Below, piece after piece: positions 924 to 48,903 of a stretch of DNA of 50,316 bases. Each line of letters begins with the position of its first letter. The stretch's first letter is position 1. The DNA comes from an uncultured Bacteroidales bacterium (GTDB lineage: Bacteria > Bacteroidota > Bacteroidia > Bacteroidales > UBA10428): contig CBFCXR010000001.1 of NCBI GenBank assembly GCA_965602045.1, forward strand, positions 1 to 50,316. Reading direction: 5' to 3'. The notes beneath the pieces were generated by a model, which did not search any database, was not told the origin of the DNA, and worked only from the letters and a program-made list of their open reading frames with translations. The position numbers and the translations under genes were made by a program.

Positions 924-979
924 AAATGGTTATGTTATATTATTATTAACCCGGTAAAATATATTCAGGCTAATTAAAT

Positions 980-1007: not shown

Positions 1008-1008
1008 A

Positions 1009-1488
<480 letters not shown>

Positions 1489-1506
1489 TTAAAATTAATA
1501 TTAATA

Positions 1507-3917: not shown

Positions 3918-3918
3918 G

Positions 3919-7001: not shown

Positions 7002-7016
7002 ACTAAAATTCTTGAT

Positions 7017-7865
7017 TTAAATAAACTCTTTTGAAAATTCATAACTTTTTTCCAGGTTACTTAATAAATTATTAAATAATTCCTGTCCTGTTTCTTTATC
7101 TAATCTTAACCATCTTATAATAATTTCAATTTGCAAAGTATAGGAAAATATTTTTTCTGTTGTGAAATAATGGAAGAAAGTCCAGTCATTTAATAACTCC
7201 CATTTAATAATATCAATCTTTTTTTCCCTTTCAACCAGATTATTTTCCTCTAACGCGTTGATAATAGATTCCAGTTTTGGAAATTCAATACTAATTCCGA
7301 AGTCCCTTGCATTGCTTTTAATAAGTTTTTCGGTAATTTCATTATTTCCAATAAGCTCATTCTCAACTGTAAGCTGATGCTTTTTGCAATTATATGCTGT
7401 AATTATGTTGGTAAGATTCATTTCAAATTCGAACCAGTTCCGGATATACTGGTTATCCAGGCCGCTTAAATAATTGTAGTAAAGTTGAGTAATCTGATTT
7501 TCCCAATCTTTGCCCCGAAATAAAGGTAATTCATTCTTATATGCGTGTATAAATTCACCAAAATAACCGGGTATTTCTCTTTCAAACGAATATAATGCAT
7601 CATCTTTAACCAGACTGAAGATTTCATCGAAATCTTCCTTTGATAAATTTCCGAGTTCATTAATGCCTGACTCAGGATTTTTAAGCAATTTGAGTACGTT
7701 AATATTATCATATCTCCAGAAAAATGATTCTATTAATCTGAAATCCTTAAAATGCAATACTTCCCTAAGCTGATTTTTAAAATCCGGAAAAGTAAAATTG
7801 ATTTTATCGTTATTAAAAAATAACTCAGGAAGACCTGCAACCAAACAATGATATTCTCGACTCAT
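7017..7865 (-). CDS. DUF2764-family protein (Bacteroidota V-ATPase operon member, presumed C/d-subunit equivalent)
   Basis: 282 aa all-helical protein located between ntpE and ntpA, the position this family occupies in Bacteroidota V-ATPase operons as I recall them. Confidence 0.7.
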   Translation of the reverse strand: MSREYHCLVAGLPELFFNNDKINFTFPDFKNQLREVLHFKDFRLIESFFWRYDNINVLKLLKNPESGINELGNLSKEDFDEIFSLVKDDALYSFEREIPGYFGEFIHAYKNELPLFRGKDWENQITQLYYNYLSGLDNQYIRNWFEFEMNLTNIITAYNCKKHQLTVENELIGNNEITEKLIKSNARDFGISIEFPKLESIINALEENNLVEREKKIDIIKWELLNDWTFFHYFTTEKIFSYTLQIEIIIRWLRLDKETGQELFNNLLSNLEKSYEFSKEFI

Positions 7866-7868
7866 TTC

Positions 7869-8486
7869 TTACTCTTCAGAAAATAATAACTTGATTAATC
7901 TTGGCCTTAAATAATGCTTGAAGAAGTTTATAAAATCTTCTTCAGTAAAGCTGATTTTGAAGCTGCCATCTTTTGGACCTATCTGAAAACCGGATTTAAT
8001 ATCGTTATCAAACCGGATTGCTAAGCCCCCTTTTAGTAAATCTTTTGCAGAACTGTTAAAGTATTGTTGTAAGTCTTTTTCTTCTTTTGCAGGCAAAAGT
8101 ACCGAAATATCAATAGCTTCATCCGATGAGGATTTCCAGTTTTTTATTGTGATTTCAATCAGTTTCTTAATAAAAGTTTTGTCATTAAATACATTACTGA
8201 CAGTTGCACTAACAATTTTATCATTAACTAAATCTGTAATCCGTTGTTTTAATGCGTTTATCGCTTGTTTAGAGGAAAGTATAAGTTCTGCTTCAGAATT
8301 TGATTTGATTTCGTCAGATTTTTTTTTCGCATCATTAATAATTTTTTCAGCTTCTTTCTTTGCATTAGCAACTATTTCCAGGGCTTCTTTCTTTGAATCG
8401 CTTATTATTTTTTCTGCTTCAGTATTTCCTTTTGAAATACCTTCTTTAAATATTTTTTCCGTTAGTTCCTGTAATCTATTCTGCAT
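7869..8486 (-). CDS. ntpE: V-type ATPase subunit E (peripheral stalk)
   Basis: 205 aa with a long Lys/Glu/Ala coiled-coil N-terminus and a globular C-terminus. First gene of the operon. Confidence 0.85.
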   Translation of the reverse strand: MQNRLQELTEKIFKEGISKGNTEAEKIISDSKKEALEIVANAKKEAEKIINDAKKKSDEIKSNSEAELILSSKQAINALKQRITDLVNDKIVSATVSNVFNDKTFIKKLIEITIKNWKSSSDEAIDISVLLPAKEEKDLQQYFNSSAKDLLKGGLAIRFDNDIKSGFQIGPKDGSFKISFTEEDFINFFKHYLRPRLIKLLFSEE

Positions 8487-9059: not shown

Positions 9060-10763
9060 ATGAATTATGGTGTACTTGATATATTAAGATTACTGGGCGC
9101 TCTGGGCTTATTTCTTTTTGGCATGAAACTTATGAGTGAATCCCTACAAAAAGTAGCCGGGGCAAAAATGAGGAATATCCTTTCTGCAATGACTTCAAAC
9201 AGGTTCATGGGTGTTTTTACAGGACTCATTATTACATCAATAATTCAATCTTCATCTGCTACTACTGTAATGGTTGTTAGTTTTGTTAATGCGGGATTAT
9301 TGTCACTGGCAGAATCTATTGGTGTAATTATGGGGGCAAACATTGGTACAACAGTAACTGCATGGCTGATTTCCATTCTTGGATTTAAAGTAGATATTTT
9401 TTCATTTACTTTTATATTAATAGGTTTAGGATTACCGGTTTTATTTTCAAAAGATAAAAGAAAAAGTTCCTGGGGGGAAATATTAATTGGATTCTCTTTG
9501 ATATTTATGGGATTACATTACTTAAAACTATTTACTCCTGATATTAATAACAATCCTGAATTATTAGAATATTTATCAAGGTACTCCCAATCCGGCAGCT
9601 TGTCAATATTTATTTTTTTGACTATCGGCGCATTTTTAACAATGATTATTCAATCATCAAGTGCTGTTATGGCACTTACACTGGTTATGTGTTATAACGG
9701 CTGGATTTCATTTGATATGGCTGCAGCGATGGTTCTGGGACAAAATATAGGAACAACTATAACGGCAAATTTGGCTGCCATAGTTGCTAATACTTCAGGG
9801 AAACGTGCCGCAAGGGCTCACTTTATTTTTAATATAGTAGGAGTAATCATTGTTTTATTTGTATTTAATCCTTTTTTAAAATTAATTAATTGGTTTATTA
9901 TTGAAGTAGGCCTAAATTCTCCTTATTCTTCTGCTGTCCAAACGGCTGATCAAGCAGCCCGGGCTATACCAATTGCATTGTCAATTTTCCATACTGTATT
10001 TAATATACTTAATACTGTGGTTTTAATATGGTTTGCTTCGTTTATAATGAAGATTACAATGATTATGGTACCTGATCGTGATGAAGATGAAGAATTCAGC
10101 CTTAAATATATTAATACGGGATTGCTTTCAACAGGAGAGTTATCAATACTGCAGGCCAAAAAAGAAATAGTGCTTTATGCACGGCGCGCTACAAAAATGT
10201 TCGAGTTTGCCAAAGAATCATATATAGCAAAATCAGGTAAGAAATACAATAAGTATATAGGAAAAATCAGGAAATATGAAGACATATCCGATAGAATGGA
10301 AGTTGAGATAGCATCATATTTGACAAGAATATCAGAAGAATCTGTCAGTTCTTCCGGTTCTGAAAAAATAGCAAATATGCTTAATCTTATAAGTAATATT
10401 GAAAGCATAGCTGATTCAAGTAATAAACTGGCTGATACAATTGAAAGGATGACTTCACGCAAAGTTGAATTTACAAAAGATATGGACAAGAACGTAAATA
10501 AACTGTTTTTGCTCGCTGATAGAATTTTAGCGGAAATGAATGAAGGATTACGAAAGGAAGAGACTTCAATATTATCCAGGAATTATATAATGCTCAGAAA
10601 AGAGCTTCAGAATATTGAAGAAAATATGCAGGAAGATCACTTTAAAAATTTGAGAAAGGGAAAATATAAATGTGCTGTTGGAATAATATATTCTGATATT
10701 TATAGCGAAATCATAAATCTGGGAAATTACGCCTTAAACGCAACTGAATTGTTTATTCAATAA
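9060..10763 (+). CDS. Na+/phosphate cotransporter family protein (NptA/YjbB type) with C-terminal PhoU-like domain
   Basis: 567 aa with the duplicated QSSSAT/QSSSAV re-entrant motifs of Na/Pi-II-related carriers, then a hydrophilic helical tail of about 200 aa. Confidence 0.88.
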   Translation: MNYGVLDILRLLGALGLFLFGMKLMSESLQKVAGAKMRNILSAMTSNRFMGVFTGLIITSIIQSSSATTVMVVSFVNAGLLSLAESIGVIMGANIGTTVTAWLISILGFKVDIFSFTFILIGLGLPVLFSKDKRKSSWGEILIGFSLIFMGLHYLKLFTPDINNNPELLEYLSRYSQSGSLSIFIFLTIGAFLTMIIQSSSAVMALTLVMCYNGWISFDMAAAMVLGQNIGTTITANLAAIVANTSGKRAARAHFIFNIVGVIIVLFVFNPFLKLINWFIIEVGLNSPYSSAVQTADQAARAIPIALSIFHTVFNILNTVVLIWFASFIMKITMIMVPDRDEDEEFSLKYINTGLLSTGELSILQAKKEIVLYARRATKMFEFAKESYIAKSGKKYNKYIGKIRKYEDISDRMEVEIASYLTRISEESVSSSGSEKIANMLNLISNIESIADSSNKLADTIERMTSRKVEFTKDMDKNVNKLFLLADRILAEMNEGLRKEETSILSRNYIMLRKELQNIEENMQEDHFKNLRKGKYKCAVGIIYSDIYSEIINLGNYALNATELFIQ

Positions 10764-12620: not shown

Positions 12621-14045
12621 TTAAAATTCATCTGTTTTCTTCGGGAAATAATTATTTTTCTTTCGGGTAATTCTATAAACGAATGATAAATTTAATCTGC
12701 CCGGATTAACTTTATAAAGATTAAAGTTAGAATACTCATAATTCACATTTATTGTGAAATAATTATTTTCCCAGAACACTCCCGATTTGGGAGCAAAAAT
12801 AAATTTGTTTGCAGGTTTTGATATTGATCCTCTATAGCTGCCAAAAGTATATAATTCTCTTGCTCCGACAGAAATCCCCAGGGCTGACTGATCCTTAAAT
12901 TTAATTATATTATACTTTTTATCTAAACTTAAGAAAAGCGCCATCCTTATTTCCCAATACTGATATGATAATGTTTCAGATACGTCTTCGAGAACCCTTT
13001 TTCTCCAGGGCCGGATAGTATAACCATAATTTAATACGGTATTATATTTTCTATCATGCAAACCCATATTTACTCCGGCCATAAAATCATTAAGATTGAA
13101 ATCTACGTTCATGCCAAAAGCATATTGACTGATACTTGGTAATAAATTTCTTTTGCCATTATTTTCCAATAAGAATCTTTTAATAGATTTGTTTTTATGT
13201 TTACATGCCAATGATACCGGATTTTCTGTTAGTGATATTTTTTCATTAACATTTGCTCCTTTTTCTGTTAATAATATAACCGATTCAAGGTCTTCCTGTT
13301 CAACTGCTATGGCAATCGGAGAATATCCCGAATGTGTTTTCGCATTTACACCAGCGCCATTATTAATCAGTAATTCCGCCAAATTTGAATAACCATTTTG
13401 TACAGCACAATGTAATGCCGATAAACCTTTGTTATCTGTTGAGTTAACATCAGTGCCGGCTTCAATTAGCCTGGCTCCTATATCATAATCACCATAGTAA
13501 GATGCTAACATAAGGGCATCTGTTCCGGATTTATTTTTTCTGTCTGCTTCTGCTTCATAATATAATAGCATATCCAATATAATAAAATGTCCGTAAGCCG
13601 AGGCATACATTAATGGTGTACTACCTGAGTTGTCAGTAATATTTATGTCTGCACCATTTCTGATTAGATATTCAGCAATGTAGAGATTGCCGGTTATAAC
13701 CGAATTAATTAGTACCGGTATTCCACTATTTGGTTTTTTATCCAAATCAGCCCCATTCAGTACTAATATTTTTATCATGTTGGTATCCTGGTTTTGCACT
13801 GCATACATTAAAGGAGTGACACCTTCCCAGGTTTTAAAATTAACATTGGCTCCTTTATTTAAAAGACGTATAACTTCCTGCGGATATCCTTTTTCGGTTG
13901 CCAGTAAGAGGTTATAGTCAATATTTCCTTTAATATAGTATGAAGTATCAATTTTGGCCGTATCAGTACTAATTGAATCCTGGGATAATCCATTTATTGA
14001 ATATGTAATTAACAGTAGTATCAGTAAATGCCTTTGGATTTTCAT
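12621..14045 (-). CDS. Signal-peptide ankyrin-repeat protein with a beta-rich (putative outer-membrane barrel) domain of about 170 aa at the C-terminus
   Basis: 474 aa with about 8 ANK repeats (TPLMYAVQNQDTNMIKILVLNGADLD, STPLMYASAYGH, LSALHCAVQNGYSNLAELLINNGAGVN...). The C-terminus shows alternating hydrophobic patterning (YTFGSYRG, FTINVNYEYSNFNLY, LNLSFVYRI). Confidence 0.8.
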   Translation of the reverse strand: MKIQRHLLILLLITYSINGLSQDSISTDTAKIDTSYYIKGNIDYNLLLATEKGYPQEVIRLLNKGANVNFKTWEGVTPLMYAVQNQDTNMIKILVLNGADLDKKPNSGIPVLINSVITGNLYIAEYLIRNGADINITDNSGSTPLMYASAYGHFIILDMLLYYEAEADRKNKSGTDALMLASYYGDYDIGARLIEAGTDVNSTDNKGLSALHCAVQNGYSNLAELLINNGAGVNAKTHSGYSPIAIAVEQEDLESVILLTEKGANVNEKISLTENPVSLACKHKNKSIKRFLLENNGKRNLLPSISQYAFGMNVDFNLNDFMAGVNMGLHDRKYNTVLNYGYTIRPWRKRVLEDVSETLSYQYWEIRMALFLSLDKKYNIIKFKDQSALGISVGARELYTFGSYRGSISKPANKFIFAPKSGVFWENNYFTINVNYEYSNFNLYKVNPGRLNLSFVYRITRKKNNYFPKKTDEF

Positions 14046-14237: not shown

Positions 14238-16520
14238 TTATGGTAATCTTGATTTTATTGGGATATTTAACTTATTATATTCATTAAAGTCTCTGGATGC
14301 CTTTAGTAAATTTATTGTATAAGAGATCAGGTTTTTACTTTCTGCGAGTAAATCCAGATATAAAATACTGATACGGGTATTTGAATCTTCCTTTTTGATC
14401 AGCTTTATCTGATTTTTACGAAGCTTTACAATTGTATCTGTTAAATTCCTGGATATTGAAACTATCTTATTAACATTTTCAAATGAATTGCCGGAGATAA
14501 TTTTTGTTACTTCTTCAAGGAAATTATTGACTTTTTTCCTAAAGCTGCTCAAATCTTTTATCTGCGAGTCTTTCAAAGGCGCATGATTATTATCAACATG
14601 ATCAAAGACCGGCTTAGCCATTGATAAGATGCTTTGCGTAATATTTCTGAGATTATCCAAAACCACCAAATAATGATGTCCGCTTTCAATGGATTCTGCT
14701 TCTTCGAGTTTTCGAATTGTAATTTGTATATTTCTTTTTAGAGATTTAATCTCTTTATCCAGTTTACCTGCATCCTTACCTGACTTCTTAAGTTTTTTAC
14801 GTTTTTCACCTGCCAAACCATTTATAATGATTTTATATAAATCTGATACTGCAGTTAAAGTAGATATAATCTTTGAGTTACATTTTTCATAAACTGTTTT
14901 TCCATCAACAATTAAACTATCGGTTAAAACAGCTTCATCTTTTTCCTCTTTTTTTATTCTTTTCCTATGTAAAATATGTGTCTTATAAAGGAAGAATATT
15001 ACTATAACAATAAGTATTGGGATAGCGATTACTTTTGCCCAGGAGATAAACAATGCAACCAGGAAGGCTACAGTAAATGCACTCAGTGCAGTAAAAAACC
15101 AACCGCCTATAACCGTTAGAACTCCGGTAATTCTATATACTGCACTTTCCCTGTCCCACGCCCTGTCAGCCAGGGATGTACCCATCGCAACCATAAATGT
15201 TACGTATGTTGTGGATAGAGGGAGCTTTAGTGAGGTAGCAAATGAAATAATTATGCTTGCTACAACCAGATTTACGGATGCTCTTATTAAGTCAAAGGAA
15301 ATAGTCTTGTCTCTTTTTACTGTTTTTCTAAAGTATTTATCATTAAATCGTCTGTTAACGGCTTTTGTAATTGATTTTGGTATTATTATTTTAAAAAAAT
15401 TACCTGCCTGGATTGATTGCCTCACCAGAGTACGGGCCAGCATAGATGACTCGAATCTTTCAAATACCTGGTCCTGGTCACTTAGTCTTAATTCGGTCTT
15501 AACCACCGATTTAGCTTTTTTGGAGAGCCAGAGGGTAATAACCATAACCAGTCCGGCAATGAGAAGGAACATAGTAGGGGTTTTAACCTTACCCTGAAGA
15601 GCATCCATAAGAAATGAGTCGGGCCCAACTACGTCCTGGGCAATAAAGTTTTTAAAAGACTCAAATCCTGCTAAAGGTACTCCGATGAAATTAACAAGGT
15701 CATTGCCTGCAAATGCCATTGCCAGGGCAAAAGTGCCAACCAGTACTATTAATTTAAGAATATTGAGTTTGAATATCCATATCAGTAATTGCATTAAAAC
15801 TGTCCAGCCGCCAAAACTAATTATCAGTATCGTATATGTATTTTCTTTAATCCATGCTAACTTCTCAGGGGTAACAAATGAAGAGCCTTTAGCTCCTTTA
15901 ATTAGTATAAAATAGGTAATTGCGGTAATTGCAAAACCTCCCCATATTGCTCCAAAATATTTTAGAGTTTTAATATATTTGAATGAAAAGATTAATCTGG
16001 TAACATATTGTACAATTGCTCCCAGACTAAAAGCAACAATAACTGATAATAGTATTCCGGAAATAATGAGCAAAGCCCTGCCCGAATTAATATAATTTCC
16101 CAGTTTGTAAATTCCTTCAGGAGAATTACTGATTTTTAACAATGAAATAGCAACGGCAGCACCCAGCAATTCGAATACTATAGAAACGGTTGTAGAGGTT
16201 GGCATTCCGAAGGTATTATAAAAATCAAGGAGAATAATATCAGTAATCATTACTGCAAGAAAAATGATCATTATTTCAGCAAAATAAAACTGCCCCGGAT
16301 GAAAAATGCCTTTTCTTGCAACCTCCATCATGCCGCTTGAGAAAGTAGCACCTACCAAAATTCCCAATGCAGCAATTGTCATAATAACTTTAAATGGAGC
16401 AGCTTTTGAGCCAATAGCTGAATTCAGGAAATTTACCGCGTCATTACTAACGCCAATAATTAAATCAGATATAGCAAGAGCAAATAATATAACTACAACT
16501 ATTAAGTAGAAAGTCGGCAT
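14238..16520 (-). CDS. Inorganic phosphate transporter, PiT (PHO4) family, with long C-terminal PhoU-like or coiled-coil cytoplasmic domain
   Basis: 760 aa with duplicated PiT signature (GVSNDAVNF near the N-terminus, AGNDLVNFIGVPL mid-protein). The last 250 aa or so are hydrophilic and helical. Confidence 0.88.
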   Translation of the reverse strand: MPTFYLIVVVILFALAISDLIIGVSNDAVNFLNSAIGSKAAPFKVIMTIAALGILVGATFSSGMMEVARKGIFHPGQFYFAEIMIIFLAVMITDIILLDFYNTFGMPTSTTVSIVFELLGAAVAISLLKISNSPEGIYKLGNYINSGRALLIISGILLSVIVAFSLGAIVQYVTRLIFSFKYIKTLKYFGAIWGGFAITAITYFILIKGAKGSSFVTPEKLAWIKENTYTILIISFGGWTVLMQLLIWIFKLNILKLIVLVGTFALAMAFAGNDLVNFIGVPLAGFESFKNFIAQDVVGPDSFLMDALQGKVKTPTMFLLIAGLVMVITLWLSKKAKSVVKTELRLSDQDQVFERFESSMLARTLVRQSIQAGNFFKIIIPKSITKAVNRRFNDKYFRKTVKRDKTISFDLIRASVNLVVASIIISFATSLKLPLSTTYVTFMVAMGTSLADRAWDRESAVYRITGVLTVIGGWFFTALSAFTVAFLVALFISWAKVIAIPILIVIVIFFLYKTHILHRKRIKKEEKDEAVLTDSLIVDGKTVYEKCNSKIISTLTAVSDLYKIIINGLAGEKRKKLKKSGKDAGKLDKEIKSLKRNIQITIRKLEEAESIESGHHYLVVLDNLRNITQSILSMAKPVFDHVDNNHAPLKDSQIKDLSSFRKKVNNFLEEVTKIISGNSFENVNKIVSISRNLTDTIVKLRKNQIKLIKKEDSNTRISILYLDLLAESKNLISYTINLLKASRDFNEYNKLNIPIKSRLP

Positions 16521-20930: not shown

Positions 20931-22349
20931 CTAATGAATTCCTATAAACATCCTTTTAAACCTTATTTTCTTAACGAAATTTTTATCTTTATCAATTGAC
21001 AACCAGATAAATTTAGGTTTTCCAACGATATGATCGTCCGGCACGAATCCCCAGAAACGGGCATCTAAGCTGCCATGGCGGTTGTCTCCCATCATCCAGT
21101 AATAGTCCATCCTGAATTTATATTCATCTGTTTCAATCTCATTTATATATATTTTACCATCCTCAACTTTTAAATTATTATTCTCATAATGATCAATTAT
21201 ACGGCGATATAAAGAAAGATTTGAAGTGTCAATTTTTATTGTTGCTCCTTTTTTGGGTATATATAAAGGTCCGAAATTATCAAGGTTCCATTTATATCTT
21301 ATATCATGGGGGAAAACCGAGAAATCATAATAACCCTGGGGCATGATTATTTTATTAACTGAAACAACATTTCTATAATTTTTAATGATTTTCAAATTGT
21401 CTTTAGTAAGAGGTATCTCCCATGCAAAATCCTTATTTATATTCCTTTTAATGTCTGTTCTTGAAATGCCCAGCTTTTCCAGTTTTCTTCTATTCAGTGC
21501 TGAACCATTTGTAATGATTTCATAATCAAATTGAATCCCCGGAATATTGTCCTGAGGTTTACTATTAACATAAACGTTGCCGTTAATAATTTCCAGAGTA
21601 TCTCCCGGAATAGCCACACATCTTTTAATATAATTGTCTCTTCTATCTACGGGATGTACGACTATATCCATATTTTCCCAGATGTTTTTCCTGGCCTTAT
21701 TATAATAATATTCATCATCTTCTCTGATTTTCCTGTAGAACATATCCATTTGTTTAAGTTTTTCAGCTTCTTGCAGAATAAGAAGATAATAACTTGTATT
21801 TCTTTGTTGTATTGCAACCGTATCGCCTTCAGGAAAATTAAATACCACTGCATCATTTCTTTTAATTTTCCCGAATCCTTTTAATCGTTTATATGGTAGT
21901 TTTATCCATTCAAGATATGACTTTGTTTTTGTTGTAAGCGGGAGGGTATTTTGGGCAAAGGGAAAAGCAAGTGGCGTGTTGGGTATTTTCGGTCCAAAAG
22001 CAACTTTGCTGACATACAGGTGGTCACCAACCAATAGCGATTTTTCCATAGAAGGCGTAGGGATTTTATAGTTTTGAAAAAGAAATATATTTATAAGTGT
22101 AACAGCAATTACCGCAAATATTAAAGCATCTAACCATTCGATTAACGTACTGTTTTTTCCTTCTCTTTTTTTCCAGAAACTCCAGTTTACTTTTTTCGAT
22201 ATATAGATATCGAATATTATTATTAATCCAGGAAATAACCAGTAACTGCCAAGCCAGATAACCCATAGAATATAAATTATTGATGCAAATGCAAACTTTA
22301 TATAATCCTTCTTAAAGAATTTCATATTTAACTTTTTAATCGGTACCAT
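20931..22349 (-). CDS. lepB: Signal peptidase I
   Basis: 472 aa; catalytic Ser box PSMEKSLLVGD, Lys box YIKRCVAIPGD, GDNRHGSLDARFWGFVP. An alternative start at 22325 (MKFFKK) aligns better with the paralog. Confidence 0.92.
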   Translation of the reverse strand: MVPIKKLNMKFFKKDYIKFAFASIIYILWVIWLGSYWLFPGLIIIFDIYISKKVNWSFWKKREGKNSTLIEWLDALIFAVIAVTLINIFLFQNYKIPTPSMEKSLLVGDHLYVSKVAFGPKIPNTPLAFPFAQNTLPLTTKTKSYLEWIKLPYKRLKGFGKIKRNDAVVFNFPEGDTVAIQQRNTSYYLLILQEAEKLKQMDMFYRKIREDDEYYYNKARKNIWENMDIVVHPVDRRDNYIKRCVAIPGDTLEIINGNVYVNSKPQDNIPGIQFDYEIITNGSALNRRKLEKLGISRTDIKRNINKDFAWEIPLTKDNLKIIKNYRNVVSVNKIIMPQGYYDFSVFPHDIRYKWNLDNFGPLYIPKKGATIKIDTSNLSLYRRIIDHYENNNLKVEDGKIYINEIETDEYKFRMDYYWMMGDNRHGSLDARFWGFVPDDHIVGKPKFIWLSIDKDKNFVKKIRFKRMFIGIH

Positions 22350-22351
22350 AT

Positions 22352-23698
22352 TTATTGAATTGATTTAAACATTCTTTTCCATCTTATTTTACCAAGTGAT
22401 TTTTTATTTTTATCCAAAGATAACCAAACAAACATTGCTTTACCAATTATATGATTTTCAGGAACGAATCCCCAGAATCTTGAATCATTTGAATTATGCC
22501 TGTTATCACCCATCATAAAATAATAATCCATTTTAAAAGTATAACAATTTGTATATTCTCCATTTATAAGTATTGAGTCGTTATTAACTGACAAATCATT
22601 ATTTTCATAAACTGAAATAATTCTGGTATATAACGGAAGATTATCAATATTGATATTTATAGTTTCATTTTTTTTTGGCACCACTAAAGTACCAAAATTA
22701 TCTTCCGTCCATAAATATTTATCATCAAAAGGAAAAATCTGACGATTAGTTGATAAGGGATCTACACTTTCATATTTACGGATACCTTTGACTATCTCAT
22801 ATTGTCTTATTTCATTATAAGTTTCCCGGGTTAAAGGTATTTCATATATTGAGTTTAAGAAATTATAATTTATATCGTATGCGGATATATCAATTTCTTC
22901 AAAAACAGAGTTGTCAATTTCCTTATTTTCAGATATTACAAAGTAGTTATACTGCAGATTTTCGGGTTCCATTTCCGGCTCTCCATTGATAAATGCTTTA
23001 CCATGTATAATTTGTATTGTATCACCAGGTATTCCGATACATCTTTTGACATAATTTTCACGTTTATCAACAGGATGTGTTTTTATTTTATAATTTTTAA
23101 ATATATGTTCATGTCCGTATTTTCTTACTAATGTATAATAAGTTTCGTCGGTTTTGGGATAATTAACTGCTACTGTATCACCCTCAGGAAAGTTAAAAAC
23201 AACAACATCATAGTTATTTATTTTAGTGTAACCCGGCAATCTTTTATACGGTAATTGCAGCCATGTTAAATAAGAACTAATTCCTTTAATAAAGGGCATT
23301 GTATTATGTGAGAATGGCATAGACATCAGGGTTTGGGGAAGTCTGGGGCCATATCTGAGTTTATTCACAAATATATAATCCCCTACGTAAATTGATTTCT
23401 CCATTGATGATGTTGAAATTGTGTAGGGTTCAATAATTAAAATCCTTAAAAAAAGAACCAATATCAGGGCAATTATGAAAGCATCCAGCAACTCTGTTTT
23501 GAATTTATATTTATCATCTTTCTTAATCCTTTTTTTCCAAAATGTCCAGTTTACCCAGTTAGTTATATATATATCTACCAGTATAATTATACCAAGAAAC
23601 AACCAGTAATTCCCAAACCATGATACAATTATGGTATATATTATCGAAGAGATTAAAAGCTTAAAATATGGATTTTTAAATAATTCTTTATAAGTCAA
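22352..23698 (-). CDS. lepB: Signal peptidase I (tandem paralog)
   Basis: 448 aa; [39 protein letters not shown]. Its stop lies 2 nt upstream of the next lepB start. Confidence 0.92.
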
Positions 23699-37587: not shown

Positions 37588-39021
37588 TTGAAAAGCAAAA
37601 TCATATCATCAGTAACTGAACTTTTTAAAGACTGGTTAGGGGAATCTCCCGTAAGTATTATAAAATTGCCTGAAACAACTTCGGGTAGAAAATATTACAG
37701 GCTTCAGGCAGGTGATATTTCGGCAATCGCCGTATTTAACAATAACAAGAGGGAGAATAATGCATTTATTTACCTCTCTAACCATCTTCGGAAGCATAGT
37801 GTTAATGTCCCGCTCATTTATAAAGTTAATGATAAGAATAATGTCTATTTGATAGAAGATTTGGGAGACATGACTCTTAATAAATACCTGGGAGAAAATA
37901 AAGACAAAGATTTATTTACTAAGATAGCCGGGGTCATATATAAAAGGATTATCGACGAAATGCCTGCGATACAGGTCAGTGCATCCCGTGATTTGGACTT
38001 TAGTATTTGCTATCCCAGACCTGAATTTGATTATCAAAGTATAATGTGGGATCTGAATTATTTTAAGTATTACTTTCTGAAACTGGCAGGAATAAATTTT
38101 GATGAACAATATCTGGAAAAAGATTTCCAGGCATTTACTGATTATTTGCTGGAGGCTGATCGTAATTATTTTTTGTACAGAGACTTTCAGTCAAGGAATA
38201 TTATGCTCAAAAACGATAAAATTTATTTTATCGATTATCAGGGTGGCAGGAGAGGAGCTTTACAATATGATCTGGCTTCATTACTGTTTGAGGCAAAAAC
38301 GCATTTATCATATGAGCTTCGAGAAGAATTGCTGGATTATTATATCACTGTTAACTCAAAAAGAAAAAATTTTAACTCAAAGGAATTTATCAGATATTAC
38401 CCCGGATACATTTTCATTCGGATGATTCAGGCGATGGGCGCGTATGGATTCAGAGGTTATTTTGAACGTAAAACTTTTTATTTGAATAGTATACCCTATG
38501 CTGTTAGAAATTTGAACTGGCTTTTATCAAATTATGATCTCACGGTTAAGATGCCGGAATTATCCGGTTGTTTGCAGAAGATAACTAATTCAGAATTACT
38601 TAAGGAATATGAGCAACATCAGGCAGAATTTGTCATTTCTATTAATAGTTTCTCTTATAAATCCGGCATGCCTCAGGACAACTCGGAAAATGGGGGAGGA
38701 TTTGTATTTGATTGCAGGGCAATGCCTAATCCTGGCCGATATGCCCAGTATAGCCAATTAACAGGGAAAGATAAATCAGTAGTTGACTTCCTGGAACAAG
38801 AGCAAGAAGTCAGAAAATTTCTCGATAATGCATATTCAATTGTTAAGGCATCAATTATAAATTATCAGGCCAGGAATTTTACAAATCTCATGATAAATTT
38901 CGGCTGCACAGGTGGCCGGCACAGATCAGTCTATTTCTCCGAACAACTAGCTAATCGGATAAGACATGACTTTAATATTAAAATTAAATTACGGCACAGA
39001 GCTTTGGAAAATATGTCTTAA
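37588..39021 (+). CDS. Fusion protein: AmgK-like (APH-fold) anomeric sugar kinase domain plus RapZ C-terminal-like domain
   Basis: 477 aa, TTG start. Kinase motifs YRDFQSRNIM (D199, N204) and FIDYQGG (D216). Residues from about 347 to 477 read SFSYKSGMPQD...FVFDCRAMPNPGRY...FGCTGGRHRSVYFSEQLA, matching the RapZ C-domain pattern but without RapZ's N-terminal P-loop domain. Confidence 0.75.
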   Translation: MKSKIISSVTELFKDWLGESPVSIIKLPETTSGRKYYRLQAGDISAIAVFNNNKRENNAFIYLSNHLRKHSVNVPLIYKVNDKNNVYLIEDLGDMTLNKYLGENKDKDLFTKIAGVIYKRIIDEMPAIQVSASRDLDFSICYPRPEFDYQSIMWDLNYFKYYFLKLAGINFDEQYLEKDFQAFTDYLLEADRNYFLYRDFQSRNIMLKNDKIYFIDYQGGRRGALQYDLASLLFEAKTHLSYELREELLDYYITVNSKRKNFNSKEFIRYYPGYIFIRMIQAMGAYGFRGYFERKTFYLNSIPYAVRNLNWLLSNYDLTVKMPELSGCLQKITNSELLKEYEQHQAEFVISINSFSYKSGMPQDNSENGGGFVFDCRAMPNPGRYAQYSQLTGKDKSVVDFLEQEQEVRKFLDNAYSIVKASIINYQARNFTNLMINFGCTGGRHRSVYFSEQLANRIRHDFNIKIKLRHRALENMS

Positions 39022-39143
39022 TTTAACGATTGAATAAAATTTAGAAATTTTAACAAAACAAAATAAATAGTTAAGGGTTATTGTATTATAGATGAATAGC
39101 ATTACAGGGTAATATTTTTTTGAACTAAAACCGGAATCATTTT

Positions 39144-39893
39144 ATGAAGGCAATGATATTAGCTGCAGGGGAGGGTACACGTTTAAAACCACTAACTAAT
39201 AAAATACCCAAAGCATTAATTGAGGTAAATGGTAAACCATTGTTGGAGCATACGATTCGTTATTTGTTATATTATGGTGTGGATGAGATTATTATTAATG
39301 TCCATCACCTGGCTGATCAAATCATAGATTATATTAAACTTAAAAACTATTTTAACATAAGAATAGAATTCTCAGTTGAAAAGGATAAATTATTGGGAAC
39401 GGGCGGGGGATTAAAAAAAGCATCATGGTTTTTCAATGACAGTAAATCATTTTTCCTTGCAACTGCAGACATAATTACTAATCATGATCTTAACAAGTTG
39501 TATAGTATGCATGTACAATCTGATGCCCTGGTTACATTAGCTTTAAAATCCAGACAGTCAACACGGGAACTATTATTAAATGACGATTATCATTTATGCG
39601 GGTGGAAGAGTAACGTCACAGGAGAAAGGAAATTGGTTAACGATGATGCAGATATAAAATATTCTATTGCATTTAGCGGGTATCATGTTATTAATCCTTC
39701 TATTTTCAATAAAATCTCAGAAGAAGGCTCATTTTCGATAATTGATTTATATTTAAAGCTGGCAAATGAAAATGTAATTAATGGATTTATTCAAAATGAT
39801 TCATTCTGGATAGAGTTTGGAAGAATAGGAAACTTTAAAGCAGCCGGGCGATCAAAGAAACTGAAAAAAATAATATCCAAATACAATGATTAA
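39144..39893 (+). CDS. Sugar-1-phosphate nucleotidyltransferase, MurU-like (N-acetylmuramate alpha-1-phosphate uridylyltransferase candidate)
   Basis: 249 aa; MKAMILAAGEGTRLKPLT...PKALIEVNGKPLLEH...GTGGGLKKA, close to my recollection of Pseudomonas MurU. Confidence 0.75.
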   Translation: MKAMILAAGEGTRLKPLTNKIPKALIEVNGKPLLEHTIRYLLYYGVDEIIINVHHLADQIIDYIKLKNYFNIRIEFSVEKDKLLGTGGGLKKASWFFNDSKSFFLATADIITNHDLNKLYSMHVQSDALVTLALKSRQSTRELLLNDDYHLCGWKSNVTGERKLVNDDADIKYSIAFSGYHVINPSIFNKISEEGSFSIIDLYLKLANENVINGFIQNDSFWIEFGRIGNFKAAGRSKKLKKIISKYND

Positions 39894-43642: not shown

Positions 43643-44194
43643 ATGAAGAAAATACTTGGAGTAGCAGGAAGTCCCCGTAAAAATGGAAATACTCATATTC
43701 TTGTTAAAAATATACTTAAAGGAGCAAAAGATAATGGTGCCATTACAGAAATATTATTTCTGAAGGATATGGATATTAAGGAATGTGACGGCTGTCATAC
43801 ATGCTGGAAAGGTAACGGGTGTTCTAAAAAAGATGATATGAATAATATATATCCGAAAATTATTGAAAGCGATATAATTATTTTTGGTACACCGGTTTAC
43901 TGGTATGGTCCAACTGCATTGATGAAAGCCTTTATTGACCGGTTTGTTTATTTTAATTGTCCGGAAAATCGTAAAAAAATTAAAAATAAGTCAGCTGTAA
44001 TTGCAGTTCCTTTTGAAGATAAGAGCATGGAGACTGTCGCACCACTAATAGAATTTTTTACTAAATGCTTTGAATACCTGCAATTGAGATTTATTAATAA
44101 GATTATTGTTCCCGGAGTAACAGCCAGGGGTGAAATTTCAAATAATAAAGAATATATGGAGGAAGCTTACAGTTTGGGAAAGGGATTATTATGA
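43643..44194 (+). CDS. Iron-sulfur flavoprotein-like NADPH-dependent FMN reductase family protein
   Basis: 183 aa; flavodoxin-like GSPRKNGNT and a compact C48-x2-C51-x2-C54-x5-C60 motif like archaeal Isf. Confidence 0.75.
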   Translation: MKKILGVAGSPRKNGNTHILVKNILKGAKDNGAITEILFLKDMDIKECDGCHTCWKGNGCSKKDDMNNIYPKIIESDIIIFGTPVYWYGPTALMKAFIDRFVYFNCPENRKKIKNKSAVIAVPFEDKSMETVAPLIEFFTKCFEYLQLRFINKIIVPGVTARGEISNNKEYMEEAYSLGKGLL

Positions 44195-45301
44195 GATGAT
44201 ATTTGTATTTCTGCCTCTTGATTTCGCATAGACCAGTGCTACGGTTCTGTATAAGAAATGTCCAAATTTCATATAAGGCGCGTAGATGATAATAAACCAT
44301 ACACTAACCAGGTGGAATATATATATATGATATGAAATATTCCAGTTTTGAAAGCGACCGATTTCAAGAAACACGCCTGATAATGTCAATAGGAAAAAAG
44401 AAATCAATAAAAGCCAGTCAGAATAATTGCTATTGCCTGATATTTCTTTATTAAAAAGTCTCTGATATATCATAATACCCAGACCAGTAAGCAGGAGTAG
44501 AGCCGCAAAATTCCCTGCTATTTTTACGGGGCTGAAAAACGGAAGAGGATAGTTATCTGTTATAACAGCTATTATTGCCATAACTGTTACTAATAAAAGC
44601 AGTATAAAGCCATAAAATACCATCAAATGGGAAGTTCTTCTGTGTTTTTGTGAATTACACTTGCTAAAATTTGAATGCGTCATTATTTCATTAATAACAC
44701 TTTTAACACTTCTAAATTTACTAAGTTGTTTTTTCCCCGGGTAATTGTTTTTCAAATCACTCCAGAATTTTCTAATACTGAATAAAGTAGTACTTATAAC
44801 CAATAATGTAAGCGTAAGAAATGAGCTATTTAACCATGCATGTGGAAAGAACTTTGAAAAATTTACAGGTCCCGGAGGAATTTTTAATGTACCGGCAGCA
44901 TATATTATGGCAAGTATTACAACCAGGGGAATGGCCAGCGATATTGGAAAGAAAACAGGATTATTTAATATTTTTGCAATAAATTTTGGTTTTGCATAAT
45001 GTAAATAATTTATTTGCCTTAATGCTGCCAGAATATCTGCAGGTTTTATACCCCGCGGGCAATATGTTGAGCAGTCTCCGCATTGATGACACAACCAGAT
45101 ATCAGGATTACCGATTAGCTTGTCTTTCAATCCCCAGCCCGCCCAAAATACCTCTTTTCTGGGAAAAGGTTTACTCTCGGGAGTAATAGCACAAACTATA
45201 GTACATTCTCCACATTGCATGCATTCTTTTAAGGATGAACCACTGATCTTTTTTGTTTGCTGTATAAAATCAATATCTGGCTGAATAATATTCATATTCA
45301 T
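44189..45301 (-). CDS. QmoC-like membrane redox protein: 2x[4Fe-4S] ferredoxin domain fused to a NarI/HdrE-like cytochrome-b membrane domain
   Basis: CMQCGECTIVC and CHQCGDCSTYCP, followed by 5-6 TM helices with conserved His (HLMVFYG, HLVSVW) and a C-terminal YMKFGHFLYR. The ORF track begins at a TTG (45331); the ATGs at 45301 and 45295 are more plausible starts. Confidence 0.65.
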   Translation of the reverse strand: MNMNIIQPDIDFIQQTKKISGSSLKECMQCGECTIVCAITPESKPFPRKEVFWAGWGLKDKLIGNPDIWLCHQCGDCSTYCPRGIKPADILAALRQINYLHYAKPKFIAKILNNPVFFPISLAIPLVVILAIIYAAGTLKIPPGPVNFSKFFPHAWLNSSFLTLTLLVISTTLFSIRKFWSDLKNNYPGKKQLSKFRSVKSVINEIMTHSNFSKCNSQKHRRTSHLMVFYGFILLLLVTVMAIIAVITDNYPLPFFSPVKIAGNFAALLLLTGLGIMIYQRLFNKEISGNSNYSDWLLLISFFLLTLSGVFLEIGRFQNWNISYHIYIFHLVSVWFIIIYAPYMKFGHFLYRTVALVYAKSRGRNTNIIS

Positions 45302-45732
45302 CAAAAGTAATATGTTATCAATAATATGCAAAATGAGTATTAAATCTGTAATAGCATGCTTTATATATAATAAGAATAAATTATCAGCACACTGCCGCCT
45401 AAGCTTCGTTTGATGCCGGATGCTTCAGGCGACAATGTTAGCTAAGGCTCCTTCAGGTTCCGTTTCAGGCTCAACCTTAGTCTTAATCCCGGGATTTTTA
45501 AATATTGGACTGAAAAGGATAACTCCATTAAAAAAGAATCAAAAAAACGCAACAAAATCTGTTAATAACAGTAATATAAATTAAAAAATTGTATTTATTA
45601 AATATTTGTATACTACTGAACTACACTGCAGGCATAAAATATTTGAAAGTAATATCAAGCATTTTTAAAAAAAGAAATATATTTACCGATTCAAAAGTGA
45701 CCTCTGTCATAACAAATATTATAATTTAAAGT

Positions 45733-46512
45733 ATGGAATTTCCGGATAATGTAAAGACGATTATAAGTAAGTTTGAGCCTATTACTCTCAGTGAAATGAA
45801 AGATGTTGAGCTGATGAACAGGACTGATATAAAATATGTTTTTAGTATTGATAAATTTCCTTATATACTTGAAAAAGCTGAAAGACTTTATAGAATTCTT
45901 GAAGTAAAAAACAGGCGTATCCACACTTATAACAATCAATATTTTGATACGGATGATTATCAGATGTATTCTAAACATCATAGCGGGCATCTTAACAGAT
46001 ATAAAATCAGGTACAGAAATTATGAGTTATCGAATATGGCATATCTGGAAATAAAATTCAAATCTAATAAGAGAAGAACGATAAAAAAGCGTATAAAAAA
46101 TAATTTTAGTACAAACATAAACAGAGTCTCCGGTAATTTTATTGAAAAAAACTCCCCTTATAAACCTGGTGATCTGACACCTATATTAACTAATGATTTT
46201 CAAAGGATAACATTGGTACACAAAACTGAAAGAGAAAGGATAACCCTTGATTTTAATATGTCTTATGCCTGTAATTGTTCAGGACCAAAAAAAACACAGG
46301 CTTTACCCAAGCTTGCCATTTGTGAAGTCAAGCGAAAAGGATATTCCAATAGTTCAGATTTTATATCAATATTAAAATCAAATGGCATACGGCAGACAAG
46401 TATGAGTAAATACTGTATTGGTGCTGCACTTTTATATGATGACTTAAAACAAAATAGATTTAAGACCAAGCTTACATTTATTGAAAATATTCATAATTCT
46501 AATAACAAATAG
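45733..46512 (+). CDS. VTC-domain (triphosphate-tunnel, polyphosphate-polymerase-like) protein
   Basis: 259 aa, soluble. Basic residues alternate on predicted beta strands (TDIKYVF, YKIRYRNYE, AYLEIKFKS, ICEVKRKG) plus YFDTDDYQMY, as in bacterial VTC-domain proteins. Confidence 0.7.
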   Translation: MEFPDNVKTIISKFEPITLSEMKDVELMNRTDIKYVFSIDKFPYILEKAERLYRILEVKNRRIHTYNNQYFDTDDYQMYSKHHSGHLNRYKIRYRNYELSNMAYLEIKFKSNKRRTIKKRIKNNFSTNINRVSGNFIEKNSPYKPGDLTPILTNDFQRITLVHKTERERITLDFNMSYACNCSGPKKTQALPKLAICEVKRKGYSNSSDFISILKSNGIRQTSMSKYCIGAALLYDDLKQNRFKTKLTFIENIHNSNNK

Positions 46513-46527
46513 TAAAATATATTTATT

Positions 46528-47193
46528 ATGCAGTTGTATGGTATAGACCTAATAGACATTCCGGACTTTTCAGAATTAATTCTGCGATTTTTATTTAACC
46601 TTTTAGTTGTACTTGTTTTGATAAGAATAATTTATTATTCTGTAGCAAGAAGGAAAGATTACCTTTTTACATATATTCTGATAGGAACAGTTGTGTTTCT
46701 GTTATGTTACCTTCTTGAAAATGTAAAGTTGCAGTTAGGCTTAGCTCTTGGGCTTTTCGCAATATTCGGCATTATAAGATATCGTACCAATCCAATTGCA
46801 ATAAAAGAGATGACTTATCTTTTCATTGTAATTGGAATATCAGTTATGAATGCTTTAGCCAATAAAAAGATAAGTTATTCTGAATTAATATTTACAAATT
46901 TTGCAGTTATTGCAGTAACCTATGGTCTTGAAAAAATATGGCTGTTAAGGCATGAATCAAGGAAAACTGTAATATATGAAAAGATTGATTTGATTAAATC
47001 GAAAAATTACAATCTTTTAATTAAAGATCTGGAAGAAAGAACCGGGTTAAAGATTAACAGGATAGAAATAGGAAGAATTGACTTTCTGCGTGATTCTGCA
47101 AGAATTAGAATCTATTATTTCGAACCAAGTAACCTGGTGAATATTTCTGATGAGGAAGACAGTTATATGGATAATAATGACGATGGGGATTAA
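46528..47193 (+). CDS. DUF4956-family integral membrane protein
   Basis: 221 aa, about 4 TM helices, FGIIRYRT motif, acidic tail (DEEDSYMDNNDDGD). Starts 15 nt after the VTC gene. Confidence 0.65.
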   Translation: MQLYGIDLIDIPDFSELILRFLFNLLVVLVLIRIIYYSVARRKDYLFTYILIGTVVFLLCYLLENVKLQLGLALGLFAIFGIIRYRTNPIAIKEMTYLFIVIGISVMNALANKKISYSELIFTNFAVIAVTYGLEKIWLLRHESRKTVIYEKIDLIKSKNYNLLIKDLEERTGLKINRIEIGRIDFLRDSARIRIYYFEPSNLVNISDEEDSYMDNNDDGD

Positions 47194-47887
47194 TGAAATA
47201 GCATGTAGAAAGTCAACATTTAGACTCATTGCATTATTTCTGGCTGTAATATCAAATATCAATTTATTTTTTGCACAGGATAAGGACTTTGAACTATGGA
47301 CCGGTGTTGCGTTAGAAGCAAATCTTTTTAAAAATATATCATTTGATCTTGAAGAAGAGATAAGATTCCGAAATAATGCAAGCGAATTTGCAGTTTATTT
47401 CACAGATGCCGGTATTTCAATTGATTTGTTGAAGAGATTCACATTCTCAGGAAACTATAGATTTATCCGGAATAAAGAACTAACTGATAATTATAGCAAT
47501 ATTCACAGATATTATTTTGACTTGAGCTACAGTAAGAATGTAAGCAGATTTCAGTTTATGTTCAGAACGAGATACCAGATAAGATATGAGAATGTGTATT
47601 CCAGTGAATCAGGATATTTACCGGAAAAATACAGTAGAAATAAGTTCGGATTGACTTATAATATATATCGCAGTCCATTGAAGGTAAGATTATGGGGTGA
47701 GTTTTTCTATCAACTTAATAATCCGGAGGGTAATAAGATTGATAAAATCCGTTATGCCCCTGAACTGAGATATGTCATTAATAAATCAAACGAATTGAAA
47801 ATATTTTACATAATAGAGAAAGAATACTATATTGAGAACCCTTCGATTATTTATATTTTAGGGATAAGTTATGGTTATAAGATATAG
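47183..47887 (+). CDS. Signal-peptide, beta-strand-rich protein (DUF2490-like, putative outer-membrane barrel)
   Basis: The start at ATG 47183 gives a signal peptide (FRLIALFLAVISNINLFFAQD). Repeated amphipathic Y/F/R-rich strands, ending GISYGYKI. Overlaps the DUF4956 gene end by 11 nt. Confidence 0.5.
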   Translation: MGINEIACRKSTFRLIALFLAVISNINLFFAQDKDFELWTGVALEANLFKNISFDLEEEIRFRNNASEFAVYFTDAGISIDLLKRFTFSGNYRFIRNKELTDNYSNIHRYYFDLSYSKNVSRFQFMFRTRYQIRYENVYSSESGYLPEKYSRNKFGLTYNIYRSPLKVRLWGEFFYQLNNPEGNKIDKIRYAPELRYVINKSNELKIFYIIEKEYYIENPSIIYILGISYGYKI

Positions 47888-47931: not shown

Positions 47932-48903
47932 TTATTCTTCGCATCGCTCAATGTATAAATCCAATACATCATATCCATATTTTTCAATATAGCCAAGTTG
48001 AAGAGACTTAAAAAAATCATTACATGCTTTTTCTTCCTGGTTCAATTCTAAATACACTAAAGCACGTATTTTATATGCAACCGGATTATCTTGATTAATA
48101 TTTAATGATTTACTTATATTTGATAATGCAAGATTATAGTCTTTTTCCTTATAATTGGCATGGCCCAAATGACAATATAATTCTGCATCTTTTGGTGTAA
48201 ATTTTAAGCCCTTATTTAAGAATTCAATTGCCTCTTTATTCTTGTCCATCTTAATTAGAATCAGACCTAACATTTTATAGGCGCGGAAATTTGATGCTTC
48301 TATTCGAATAATTTTTTTAAATGTGCGGATTGCTTCATCATCCTTATTAAGTTTCATTTGGATATCAGAAATAGAGTATAGGGTATTTACATCTAATGAA
48401 TCATACTGTAAAACAGTTAAAAAATCATTATAGGCTTCAGAATAATTTTCTAACGCATGCTTCGCTTCTCCTCTTTTTTTAAGGCATTGCAGTATTATAT
48501 CCTCATCATCAGTATTGTTAATAGCTTTGTTGCAAAATAGTATAGCACAACCATAACTTTTTGTGACAAGGCAAACCTTACCTCTTAATAAATATGCTTT
48601 TGGTGAGGTTTTATCAATCTCCAGTGCTTTATAACACATTTTTATTGTTTCGTTATATTGCTTACTGCAATAAAATAACTCACCAAGTTCAAGGTAGTAC
48701 TTTTGATTATCAGGCTCTAATCTTACTAACTTCCATAATATATCAAATGCGCCACTATAGTTCTTATGCCGGGCAAGTTTTTGAGCTTCCAAAAATAGTG
48801 ATTCACTATTCTGGCATTCCGAATTACTATAATTTAGCAATAATAATAATGTTAGAATTAGAGTTAAATTATATTTAAAAATGCGTAAATGCCTTGTAAT
48901 CAT
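47932..48903 (-). CDS. Tetratricopeptide-repeat protein with signal peptide
   Basis: 323 aa with multiple 34-aa TPR units (AYLLRGKVCL, AYKMLGLILIKMDKNKEAIEFLNKGLKFTPKDAE, AYKIRALVYLEL). Confidence 0.8.
   Translation of the reverse strand: MITRHLRIFKYNLTLILTLLLLLNYSNSECQNSESLFLEAQKLARHKNYSGAFDILWKLVRLEPDNQKYYLELGELFYCSKQYNETIKMCYKALEIDKTSPKAYLLRGKVCLVTKSYGCAILFCNKAINNTDDEDIILQCLKKRGEAKHALENYSEAYNDFLTVLQYDSLDVNTLYSISDIQMKLNKDDEAIRTFKKIIRIEASNFRAYKMLGLILIKMDKNKEAIEFLNKGLKFTPKDAELYCHLGHANYKEKDYNLALSNISKSLNINQDNPVAYKIRALVYLELNQEEKACNDFFKSLQLGYIEKYGYDVLDLYIERCEE

Follow-up and report, generated by a model that had tools for sequence, protein, structure and literature searches.

The first 50,316 nt of contig CBFCXR010000001.1 (GenBank assembly GCA_965602045.1), from an uncultured Bacteroidales bacterium of the UBA10428 lineage, carry a compact three-gene operon. 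This whole stretch is called the window below. Gene 1 encodes a VTC-family protein of predicted triphosphate-tunnel fold, gene 2 a DUF4956 membrane protein, gene 3 a putatively secreted DUF2490 protein (Table 1). We give an even chance to the view that the operon applies the VTC principle in prokaryotic, split form, combining a polyphosphate (polyP) polymerase, an inner-membrane partner and a hand-over in the envelope. The feature is real, widespread and already annotated; it represents a known system in an uncharacterised variant, and is neither rare nor a one-off.

The three family names had been put forward in an earlier note made from the DNA letters alone, hereafter the original prediction, and were borne out by Pfam hidden Markov models (HMMs), with scores far above the cut-offs and far beyond chance. 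Gene 1 matches PF09359 (VTC; E 9.5e-26, 91.2 bits against a cut-off of 23, model positions 1–235 of 235), gene 2 matches PF16316 (DUF4956; E 1.8e-52, 177.9 bits against 30.6, positions 1–169 of 169), and gene 3 matches PF10677 (DUF2490; E 1.1e-21, 77.9 bits against 29.8). The motifs listed in the same note are present as well. Gene 1 carries RYKIRYRNYE, LEIKFKS and CEVKRKG, gene 2 features GIIRYRT and the acidic tail DEEDSYMDNNDDGD, and gene 3 starts with a signal-peptide-like N-terminus (FRLIALFLAVISNINLFFA/QD). In NCBIfam, genes 2 and 3 have no match, and gene 1 only a sub-threshold match to GntR (16.7 bits against 281). None of the three proteins matched the PADLOC defence-protein models.

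Gene linkage was analyzed by scanning one genome per GTDB species, which returned 80 loci. The DUF4956 gene is located directly 3' of the VTC gene in all 78 loci with room for it; the remaining 2 of the 80 end at a contig edge. In the reciprocal search, carried out from DUF4956 in metagenomes, a VTC gene was found directly upstream in 53 of the 57 loci with enough room, and its place is taken by an M20 peptidase, a sulfatase or an unknown gene in the four exceptions. VTC and DUF4956 almost certainly form a near-obligate pair, made by a VTC-family enzyme and a dedicated membrane partner. DUF2490 genes reside within the same-strand cluster in 47 of the 80 genome loci, directly downstream in 33 (the arrangement of the window), directly upstream in 4, and ~3 kb upstream in 10. 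It is the VTC/DUF4956 pair that is conserved as a unit, not the trio, and DUF2490 is a frequent optional accessory. Synteny of the trio, as proposed in the original prediction, holds for the pair, which was found in essentially every relative, and fails for DUF2490 as a constant member.

VTC/DUF4956 pairs have been identified in Bacteroidota, Chloroflexota, Verrucomicrobiota (including Akkermansia), Riflebacteria, Deinococcota and Gammaproteobacteria. Some reside on megaplasmids, as in Deinococcus and Pseudoalteromonas. Clustered at 50% identity, the stand-alone VTC family counts 8,699 representatives at E <= 0.001, a number that falls to 4,183 at E <= 1e-10. The best 150 representatives all measure 234–322 aa.

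Pairs 42–47% identical to the Bacteroidales protein were also noticed in metagenome-assembled genomes labelled Candidatus Heimdallarchaeota (L012, a 6-kb contig) and Ca. Methanoperedens nitroreducens (L057). They may be informative on where eukaryotic Vtc4 came from, or reflect binning contamination on short contigs. A peculiar arrangement marks the megaplasmid NZ_CP142031.1 of Pseudoalteromonas sp. CuT4-3 (L165, 4225–6603), where a 364-aa annotated porin, only weakly DUF2490-like (E 0.0012), comes after DUF4956, and just a 107-aa VTC fragment, overlapping a coding sequence annotated as 'lamin tail domain', comes before it. The locus tag RS19620 is absent from the gene table, and the VTC gene may be decayed or frameshifted.

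Gene 1 (259 aa, isoelectric point 9.7) is predicted to be a soluble, stand-alone protein. VTC was the sole match above the Pfam cut-off; no CYTH (PF01928) match was found at E <= 0.1, and the Pfam scan revealed neither an SPX domain nor a PF02656 (DUF202) match. An AlphaFold2 model built from 34 homologs reached a predicted local distance difference test (pLDDT) of 90.8 and a predicted template modelling score (pTM) of 0.89. The best Foldseek matches in the PDB are the tunnel domains of yeast Vtc3, Vtc4 and Vtc2 (8i6v, 7ytj, 3g3r, 3g3o; E 1.6e-12 to 1e-10), the top rows being 8i6v_D, 7ytj_E and 3g3r_A (E 1.6e-12 to 2e-11, query-normalised template modelling score ~0.6). Hydrolytic tunnel enzymes (YgiF, SaTTM, CYTH proteins) rank below the VTC domains, yet are significant. 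As modelled, gene 1 would fold as a triphosphate tunnel, closest to the central domains of Vtc2/3/4.

A search of the PDB with the single gene 1 sequence gave nothing relevant, and a profile of the 34 sequences reached only Vtc2, weakly (E 7e-4). Since low sequence similarity defeated simple searches, residues were mapped onto yeast Vtc4 by profiles and alignments. The reference was Vtc4 residues 189–481, identical to the whole aligned stretch of PDB chain 8i6v_E. Three methods (hhalign, the family HMM with filters off, and MAFFT) agree on the mapping, the hhalign alignment spanning only the N-terminal third of Vtc4. Gene 1 residues K34, R93, R95, E106, K108 and K118 correspond to Vtc4 K200, R264, R266, E279, K281 and K294, and F156, R158, R169 and E198 to Y359, R361, R373 and E426, respectively. 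E198 lies in CEVK, which aligns with LEVK of Vtc4. S225-K226 correspond to S457-K458, according to a family HMM segment, weak but collinear, and to a local alignment in which MSKYCIG is paired with FSKFIHG, sharing the FSKF/MSKY motif. The MAFFT placement of the C-terminal S-K on N241/R242 was overruled by this HMM segment and the local alignment.

In Vtc4, K200, R264, R266, K281, R361, S457, K458 and Y359 bind triphosphate and E426 binds Mn, and polyP falls when any one of the eight triphosphate-binding residues is mutated (bioRxiv 10.1101/2023.01.27.525886). Among those residues, K458 alone is missing from the Vtc2 and Vtc3 domains, which are inactive (Liu et al., bioRxiv 10.1101/2023.01.27.525886). 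VTC is inactivated by R264A/R266A/E426N (Guan et al.). Gene 1 shares 7 of the 8 triphosphate-binding residues and the Mn-binding Glu, including the equivalent of K458. Residues K34, R93, R95, K108, R158, E198, S225 and K226 are invariant in 80 of 80 orthologs, one from each of 80 genomes. The basic tunnel residues of Vtc4, whose lack would have counted against the original prediction, are thus conserved; among the triphosphate-binding residues, Tyr359 is the one exception. The corresponding position 156 is Phe in the window protein, and Phe in 43 and Tyr in 37 of the 80 orthologs.

The motif ExExK, which we take to be the metal-binding signature of CYTH hydrolases, reads R30-T-D32-I-K34 in gene 1. 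R30 replaces the first Glu, as R196 does in Vtc4. Taken together, the alignments give gene 1 the constellation of an active Vtc4, from which it departs at two positions, F156 and D32.

The AlphaFold2 model of gene 2 features helices at residues 11–40, 46–63, 66–87, 92–110 and 117–137, a beta-alpha-beta-beta domain at 143–198, and a disordered acidic tail. Strong hydrophobicity marks four of the segments; the fifth could plausibly span the membrane as a helix. Lys plus Arg residues, averaged over the DUF4956 family, number 2.4 in loop 1, 3.1 in loop 3 and 3.2 after helix 5, as against 1.9 at the N-terminus, 1.0 in loop 2 and 1.6 in loop 4. The charge pattern fits a topology with five transmembrane helices, N-terminus out and C-terminus in. 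RRKDY, GIIRYRT and the C-terminal domain would accordingly be cytoplasmic, facing the compartment that holds ATP, in which gene 1 must therefore work. The best-conserved block of the family is GLFAxFGxxRYRT...EMTYLF.

DUF2490 has been listed under TC 1.B.81 as a family of putative outer-membrane porins whose function is unknown (PMC4827864). AlphaFold models of its members have been described as outer-membrane barrels, and Sec signal peptides were found in 51 of 60 members (bioRxiv 10.64898/2026.07.29.741452). The conserved mature start reads QD(K/E)DFELW, and 40 of 53 family members end in I, F or L. DUF2490 proteins linked to VTC are unusually basic (median isoelectric point 9.6, median net charge +11); 90% have an isoelectric point above 8, against 42% of neighbouring background open reading frames (ORFs). 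The isoelectric point of gene 3 in the window is 9.0. A basic barrel would fit contact with a polyanion, though circumstantially.

The following mechanism is proposed. Gene 1 would most likely act in the cytoplasm, transferring the gamma-phosphate of ATP onto a growing polyP chain, as Vtc4 does. Gene 2, probably oligomeric, would turn the RRKDY and GIIRYRT loops and the small domain towards the cytoplasm, dock the tunnel exit, and convey the nascent chain through the inner membrane. The basic outer-membrane barrel of gene 3 would take up, anchor or pass the polyanion at the outer membrane. These steps differ in strength. The odds lean towards polyP polymerase activity of gene 1, given the residues shared with Vtc4. 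Coupled translocation of polyP through DUF4956, suggested by gene linkage, membrane location and topology, and by these only, falls somewhat short of an even chance, and handling of polyP by DUF2490 at the outer membrane is doubtful. Export is plausible but unproven, and we infer both the direction of transport and the extracellular polyP. In its broadest form, the proposal envisages a third, VTC-type prokaryotic polyP route built for export, in which a tunnel polymerase, a DUF4956 conduit and, in diderms, a DUF2490 barrel deliver polyP to the periplasm, the surface or the outside, to serve secreted partners, for instance CotH kinases or matrix polymers, the stand-alone enzyme being the source of the eukaryotic Vtc4 catalytic domain. 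We rate this whole construction as rather unlikely.

PolyP has been described on the surface of bacteria and as a secreted product, for which no export route is known. The module is a concrete, testable candidate for such a route. In reviews up to 2026 VTC is treated as eukaryotic, and bacteria are credited with PPK1 and PPK2 only. The same genes reside in Bacteroides thetaiotaomicron, a genetically tractable gut commensal, and beside virulence or biofilm loci in Clostridium perfringens and streptococci. The proposal, if true, would give a role to each of two large uncharacterised families, and it bears on the origin of the eukaryotic VTC catalytic core.

Several points weigh against this mechanism, and each is best set beside the alternative that it bears upon. 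In a literature search, run largely outside subscription journals, no prokaryotic VTC member turned up as the subject of biochemical, genetic or structural work, in agreement with what the original prediction had said of experiments on the module. Searches on DUF4956, DUF2490, bacterial VTC, CotH plus polymerase and the B. thetaiotaomicron locus tags retrieved mentions in gene lists only. B. thetaiotaomicron, a bearer of the same genes, also has PPK1, so that the module is unnecessary for explaining bulk polyP.

Within gene 1, Phe occupies the position of Tyr359, and in yeast Y359F lowers polyP (bioRxiv 10.1101/2023.01.27.525886). The second acidic position of ExExK is taken by an invariant Asp, D32, where Vtc4 has Thr. 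Both features would suit a different view, that gene 1 is a membrane-tethered tunnel hydrolase (a triphosphatase, polyphosphatase or nucleotide phosphohydrolase) in a module that imports or degrades external polyP or scavenges phosphate, with the barrel and DUF4956 as the import path. Characterised prokaryotic tunnel enzymes are mostly hydrolases, YgiF and the CYTH proteins are significant fold matches too, and a basic barrel with secreted partners suits import as much as export. However, gene 1 has a full-length VTC match and no CYTH match in Pfam, the VTC-complex domains stand above all hydrolases by fold, and the first Glu of ExExK is Arg, as in Vtc4. K226, the residue that distinguishes active Vtc4 from its inactive paralogues, is invariant, and the two phosphate importers of the window are unlinked to the operon. 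A hydrolase is unlikely on this evidence.

Other points weigh against a conduit. The AlphaFold2 model of gene 2 is only moderate (pLDDT 72.5). Across the wider DUF4956 family, R84 is the only basic residue of the membrane region conserved at >=95%. The acidic tail is kept only among close relatives, the wider family having a median net charge of about +1 acidic. The tail was also considered as a plug, comparable to the acidic helix that lies horizontally in Vtc4, and this role was rejected because the wider family does not conserve the tail. Gene 2 has no significant Foldseek match in the PDB (best E 0.25) and no profile match there, and comparison of the DUF4956 profile with PDB-verified Vtc1 by hhalign gave a probability of 0.4%, with no detectable homology. 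DUF4956 was discarded as a diverged Vtc1-type channel because it has no relative in the PDB by fold or profile, and no homology to Vtc1; if a conduit, it would be an independent invention. Of the membrane conduit put forward in the original prediction, the membrane partner of VTC is borne out by the linkage. As for the outer membrane, the same-strand cluster lacks DUF2490 in 33 of the 80 loci (~40%), and a buried charge network was found in 238 of 2,789 DUF2490 models screened, ~9% (bioRxiv 10.64898/2026.07.29.741452). Such a network may denote a plugged, rather than an open, pore in those members.

Some of these data would be accommodated if gene 1 were a true polyP polymerase whose product stays in the cytoplasm, DUF4956 serving only as an anchor or regulator and DUF2490 being a loosely linked gene of separate function. 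The polymerase residues are conserved, DUF4956 is unlike any known channel and has a single universally conserved basic residue in the membrane region, and DUF2490 is absent from the cluster in the loci just mentioned. Yet a mere anchor is not expected to outdo the enzyme in conservation, and among the 120 best-listed relatives gene 2 is at least 65% identical, whereas the identity of gene 1 goes down to ~40–45%. Moreover, the recurrent accessory genes mostly encode secreted, outer-membrane or CotH proteins, and eukaryotes avoid free cytosolic polyP by coupling synthesis to translocation (bioRxiv 10.1101/2023.01.27.525886; Guan et al.). A purely cytoplasmic product is, on balance, improbable, and less favoured than a hydrolase.

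Optional genes next to the pair mostly look extracytoplasmic, and include secreted proteins, outer-membrane barrels and CotH kinases. A small basic secreted protein without Pfam family is encoded just upstream in 41 of the 80 loci, many of them in Bacteroidota. Another small secreted protein, with weak sub-threshold matches to prealbumin- or CarboxypepD_reg-like Pfam families, was found in 35, and a protein of ~550 aa sorted by the type IX secretion system in 17. All three are missing from the window. Examples of Bacteroidota accessory genes are L069:5502–5984, L010:5557–5991 and L039:2527–4197. CotH kinases occur in up to 7 of the 80 loci by clustering, one of which, in Chloroflexota (L025), was confirmed by Pfam. 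CotH is also annotated beside the pair on a Deinococcus megaplasmid.

The association with CotH points to a further possibility, that what the module provides is phosphoryl groups or short polyP, for modifying envelope components such as exopolysaccharide, protein or lipid, often together with CotH-family kinases, and makes no free long-chain polyP. CotH genes adjoin the pair in the Chloroflexota and Deinococcus loci, and the same association is found in the C. perfringens locus NELoc-2. Genes for cotH, polyphosphate polymerase, DUF4956 and DUF4832 also co-occur as accessory genes beside Gram-positive pel loci (bioRxiv 10.1101/768473). In contrast, Pfam scans of the window ORFs detected no CotH gene, CotH occurs in just a few of the 80 sampled loci, and gene 1 shows no hint of a non-phosphate acceptor. 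Envelope modification is about as improbable as a cytoplasmic product, and export of polyP is retained as the preferred reading.

Comparison with known systems highlights what is shared and what is new. The yeast VTC complex (Vtc4 tunnel plus a transmembrane channel of Vtc1, Vtc3 and Vtc4; PDB 8I6V, 7YTJ, 3G3Q) has the same Pfam family and tunnel fold as gene 1. It couples the enzyme to a small multi-helix membrane protein; in the window the coupling occurs at the level of genes. Unlike the yeast enzyme, gene 1 is devoid of both the SPX and the membrane-domain fusions, and it has Phe for Tyr359. The yeast membrane part is DUF202/Vtc1, whereas the partner in the window is a non-homologous DUF4956 protein with 4–5 transmembrane helices and a small soluble domain. 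An inactive tunnel subunit, Vtc2/3, is found in yeast; the operon has no such second tunnel subunit, and adds a putative outer-membrane barrel. CYTH and other tunnel hydrolases (E. coli YgiF, SaTTM, AtTTM3, thiamine triphosphatase) share with gene 1 the eight-stranded tunnel with basic lining, but are weaker fold matches than VTC, have ExExK in place of R-x-D-x-K, and have no dedicated membrane partner. PPK1 and PPK2 make the presumed product of gene 1, polyP from a nucleoside triphosphate, but belong to unrelated folds and families. Theirs is the polyP of cytoplasmic granules, and no export components are linked to them.

The same gene families have been sighted before. RefSeq/NCBI names the VTC protein 'polyphosphate polymerase domain-containing protein'. 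In B. thetaiotaomicron, BT3498-BT3499 feature the same families and order, DUF4956 then DUF2490, and appear in an expression table (PMC10434189). Deinococcus taeanensis has CotH, the polymerase domain and DUF4956 in a row. C. perfringens NELoc-2 includes two VTC genes, each followed by a gene for a 222–226-aa membrane protein, plus CotH (PMC2879425; PMC11677781). These membrane proteins, mis-called 'tubulin/FtsZ' (PMC2879425), would correspond to DUF4956. Relative to these loci the window holds the minimal Bacteroidales trio, devoid of the small secreted proteins and of the CotH genes present elsewhere.

The coordinates of the three genes agree with the layout originally described, of same-strand genes with a 15-nt gap and an 11-nt overlap, flanked by convergent or divergent genes. 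The gap between genes 1 and 2 measures exactly 15 nt. Gene 3 has three candidate starts, at 47150, 47177 and 47183, all within the 3' end of gene 2. The longest listed form is ORF 47150–47887 (+). The ATG at 47183 sits 11 nt inside gene 2, and the ATG at 47177, picked by gene callers on identical metagenome contigs, gives a 236-aa protein and a 17-nt overlap. The trio is a self-contained unit, since both neighbours are on the minus strand and the surrounding housekeeping genes (FMN reductase, MnmA-type tRNA enzyme, PAPS reductase, glycosyltransferase) are unrelated to it.

The promoter of the operon presumably lies in the divergent intergenic region, where a sigma-70 and terminator scan revealed no signal above shuffled sequences. 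A GC-rich island (GC ~0.45–0.49, against 0.2–0.3 in the surroundings) is found in the same region. It was rejected as a riboswitch of the operon because neither the intergenic region nor the island has a match in Rfam, the minus strand folds better (minimum free energy -38.4 kcal/mol, z -2.85) than the plus strand does (z -1.0), and in the 80 related genome loci the flanks 5' of the VTC gene showed no such island. Not being found upstream of VTC in those loci, the island probably belongs to the minus-strand neighbour, and may be a 5' leader or a small RNA of the 4Fe-4S gene.

Table 1. Position of the operon, its neighbours and other features in the window
Feature	Position	Strand	Remarks
Gene 1, VTC-family tunnel protein	45733–46512	+	259 aa; ORF list and Pfam
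Gene 2, DUF4956 inner-membrane protein	46528–47193	+	221 aa; ORF list and Pfam
Gene 3, DUF2490 protein, putatively secreted and a putative small beta-barrel of the outer membrane (TC 1.B.81)	47177–47887	+	Pfam
Divergent intergenic region	45332–45732	.	400 nt, 5' of gene 1
GC-rich island	~45385–45500		
5' neighbour, 4Fe-4S membrane protein	44189–45331	-	divergent from operon
3' neighbour, tetratricopeptide repeat (TPR) protein	47932–48903	-	convergent with operon
Na/Pi (inorganic phosphate) cotransporter with PhoU	9060–10763		~30 kb from operon, unlinked
PHO4/PiT-family phosphate transporter	14238–16520	-	~30 kb from operon, unlinked
V/A-type ATPase operon	399–8486	-	
Ankyrin-repeat protein	12621–14045	-	474 aa
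S26 signal peptidase I paralogues	20931–23698	-	472 and 448 aa, in tandem
APH-family kinase/RapZ C-terminal domain fusion, then nucleotidyltransferase	37588–39893	+	fusion protein 477 aa

The window also holds other phosphate genes. The original prediction had noticed two Pi importers and no ppk; both importers were found, and ppk is absent from the window ORFs of >=150 aa scanned against Pfam, as is ppx. The PHO4/PiT transporter measures 760 aa, far above the usual length, its Pfam match spanning residues ~25–331 only.

Some genes unrelated to the operon have unusual features. The V/A-type ATPase operon is complete (I, K/c, D, B and A subunits), with a DUF2764 protein where a recognisable C/d subunit would be expected, and is adjoined by a gene for a DUF456 membrane protein. 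The ankyrin protein is mostly made by ankyrin repeats (Ank_2, E 1.4e-49), which are eukaryote-like repeats in a Bacteroidales-type genome. Both signal peptidase paralogues are unusually long, and the catalytic domain of each is matched as two separate stretches. The APH-family kinase and the nucleotidyltransferase resemble an AmgK/MurU-type sugar-recycling pair, with the RapZ C-terminal domain as an addition.

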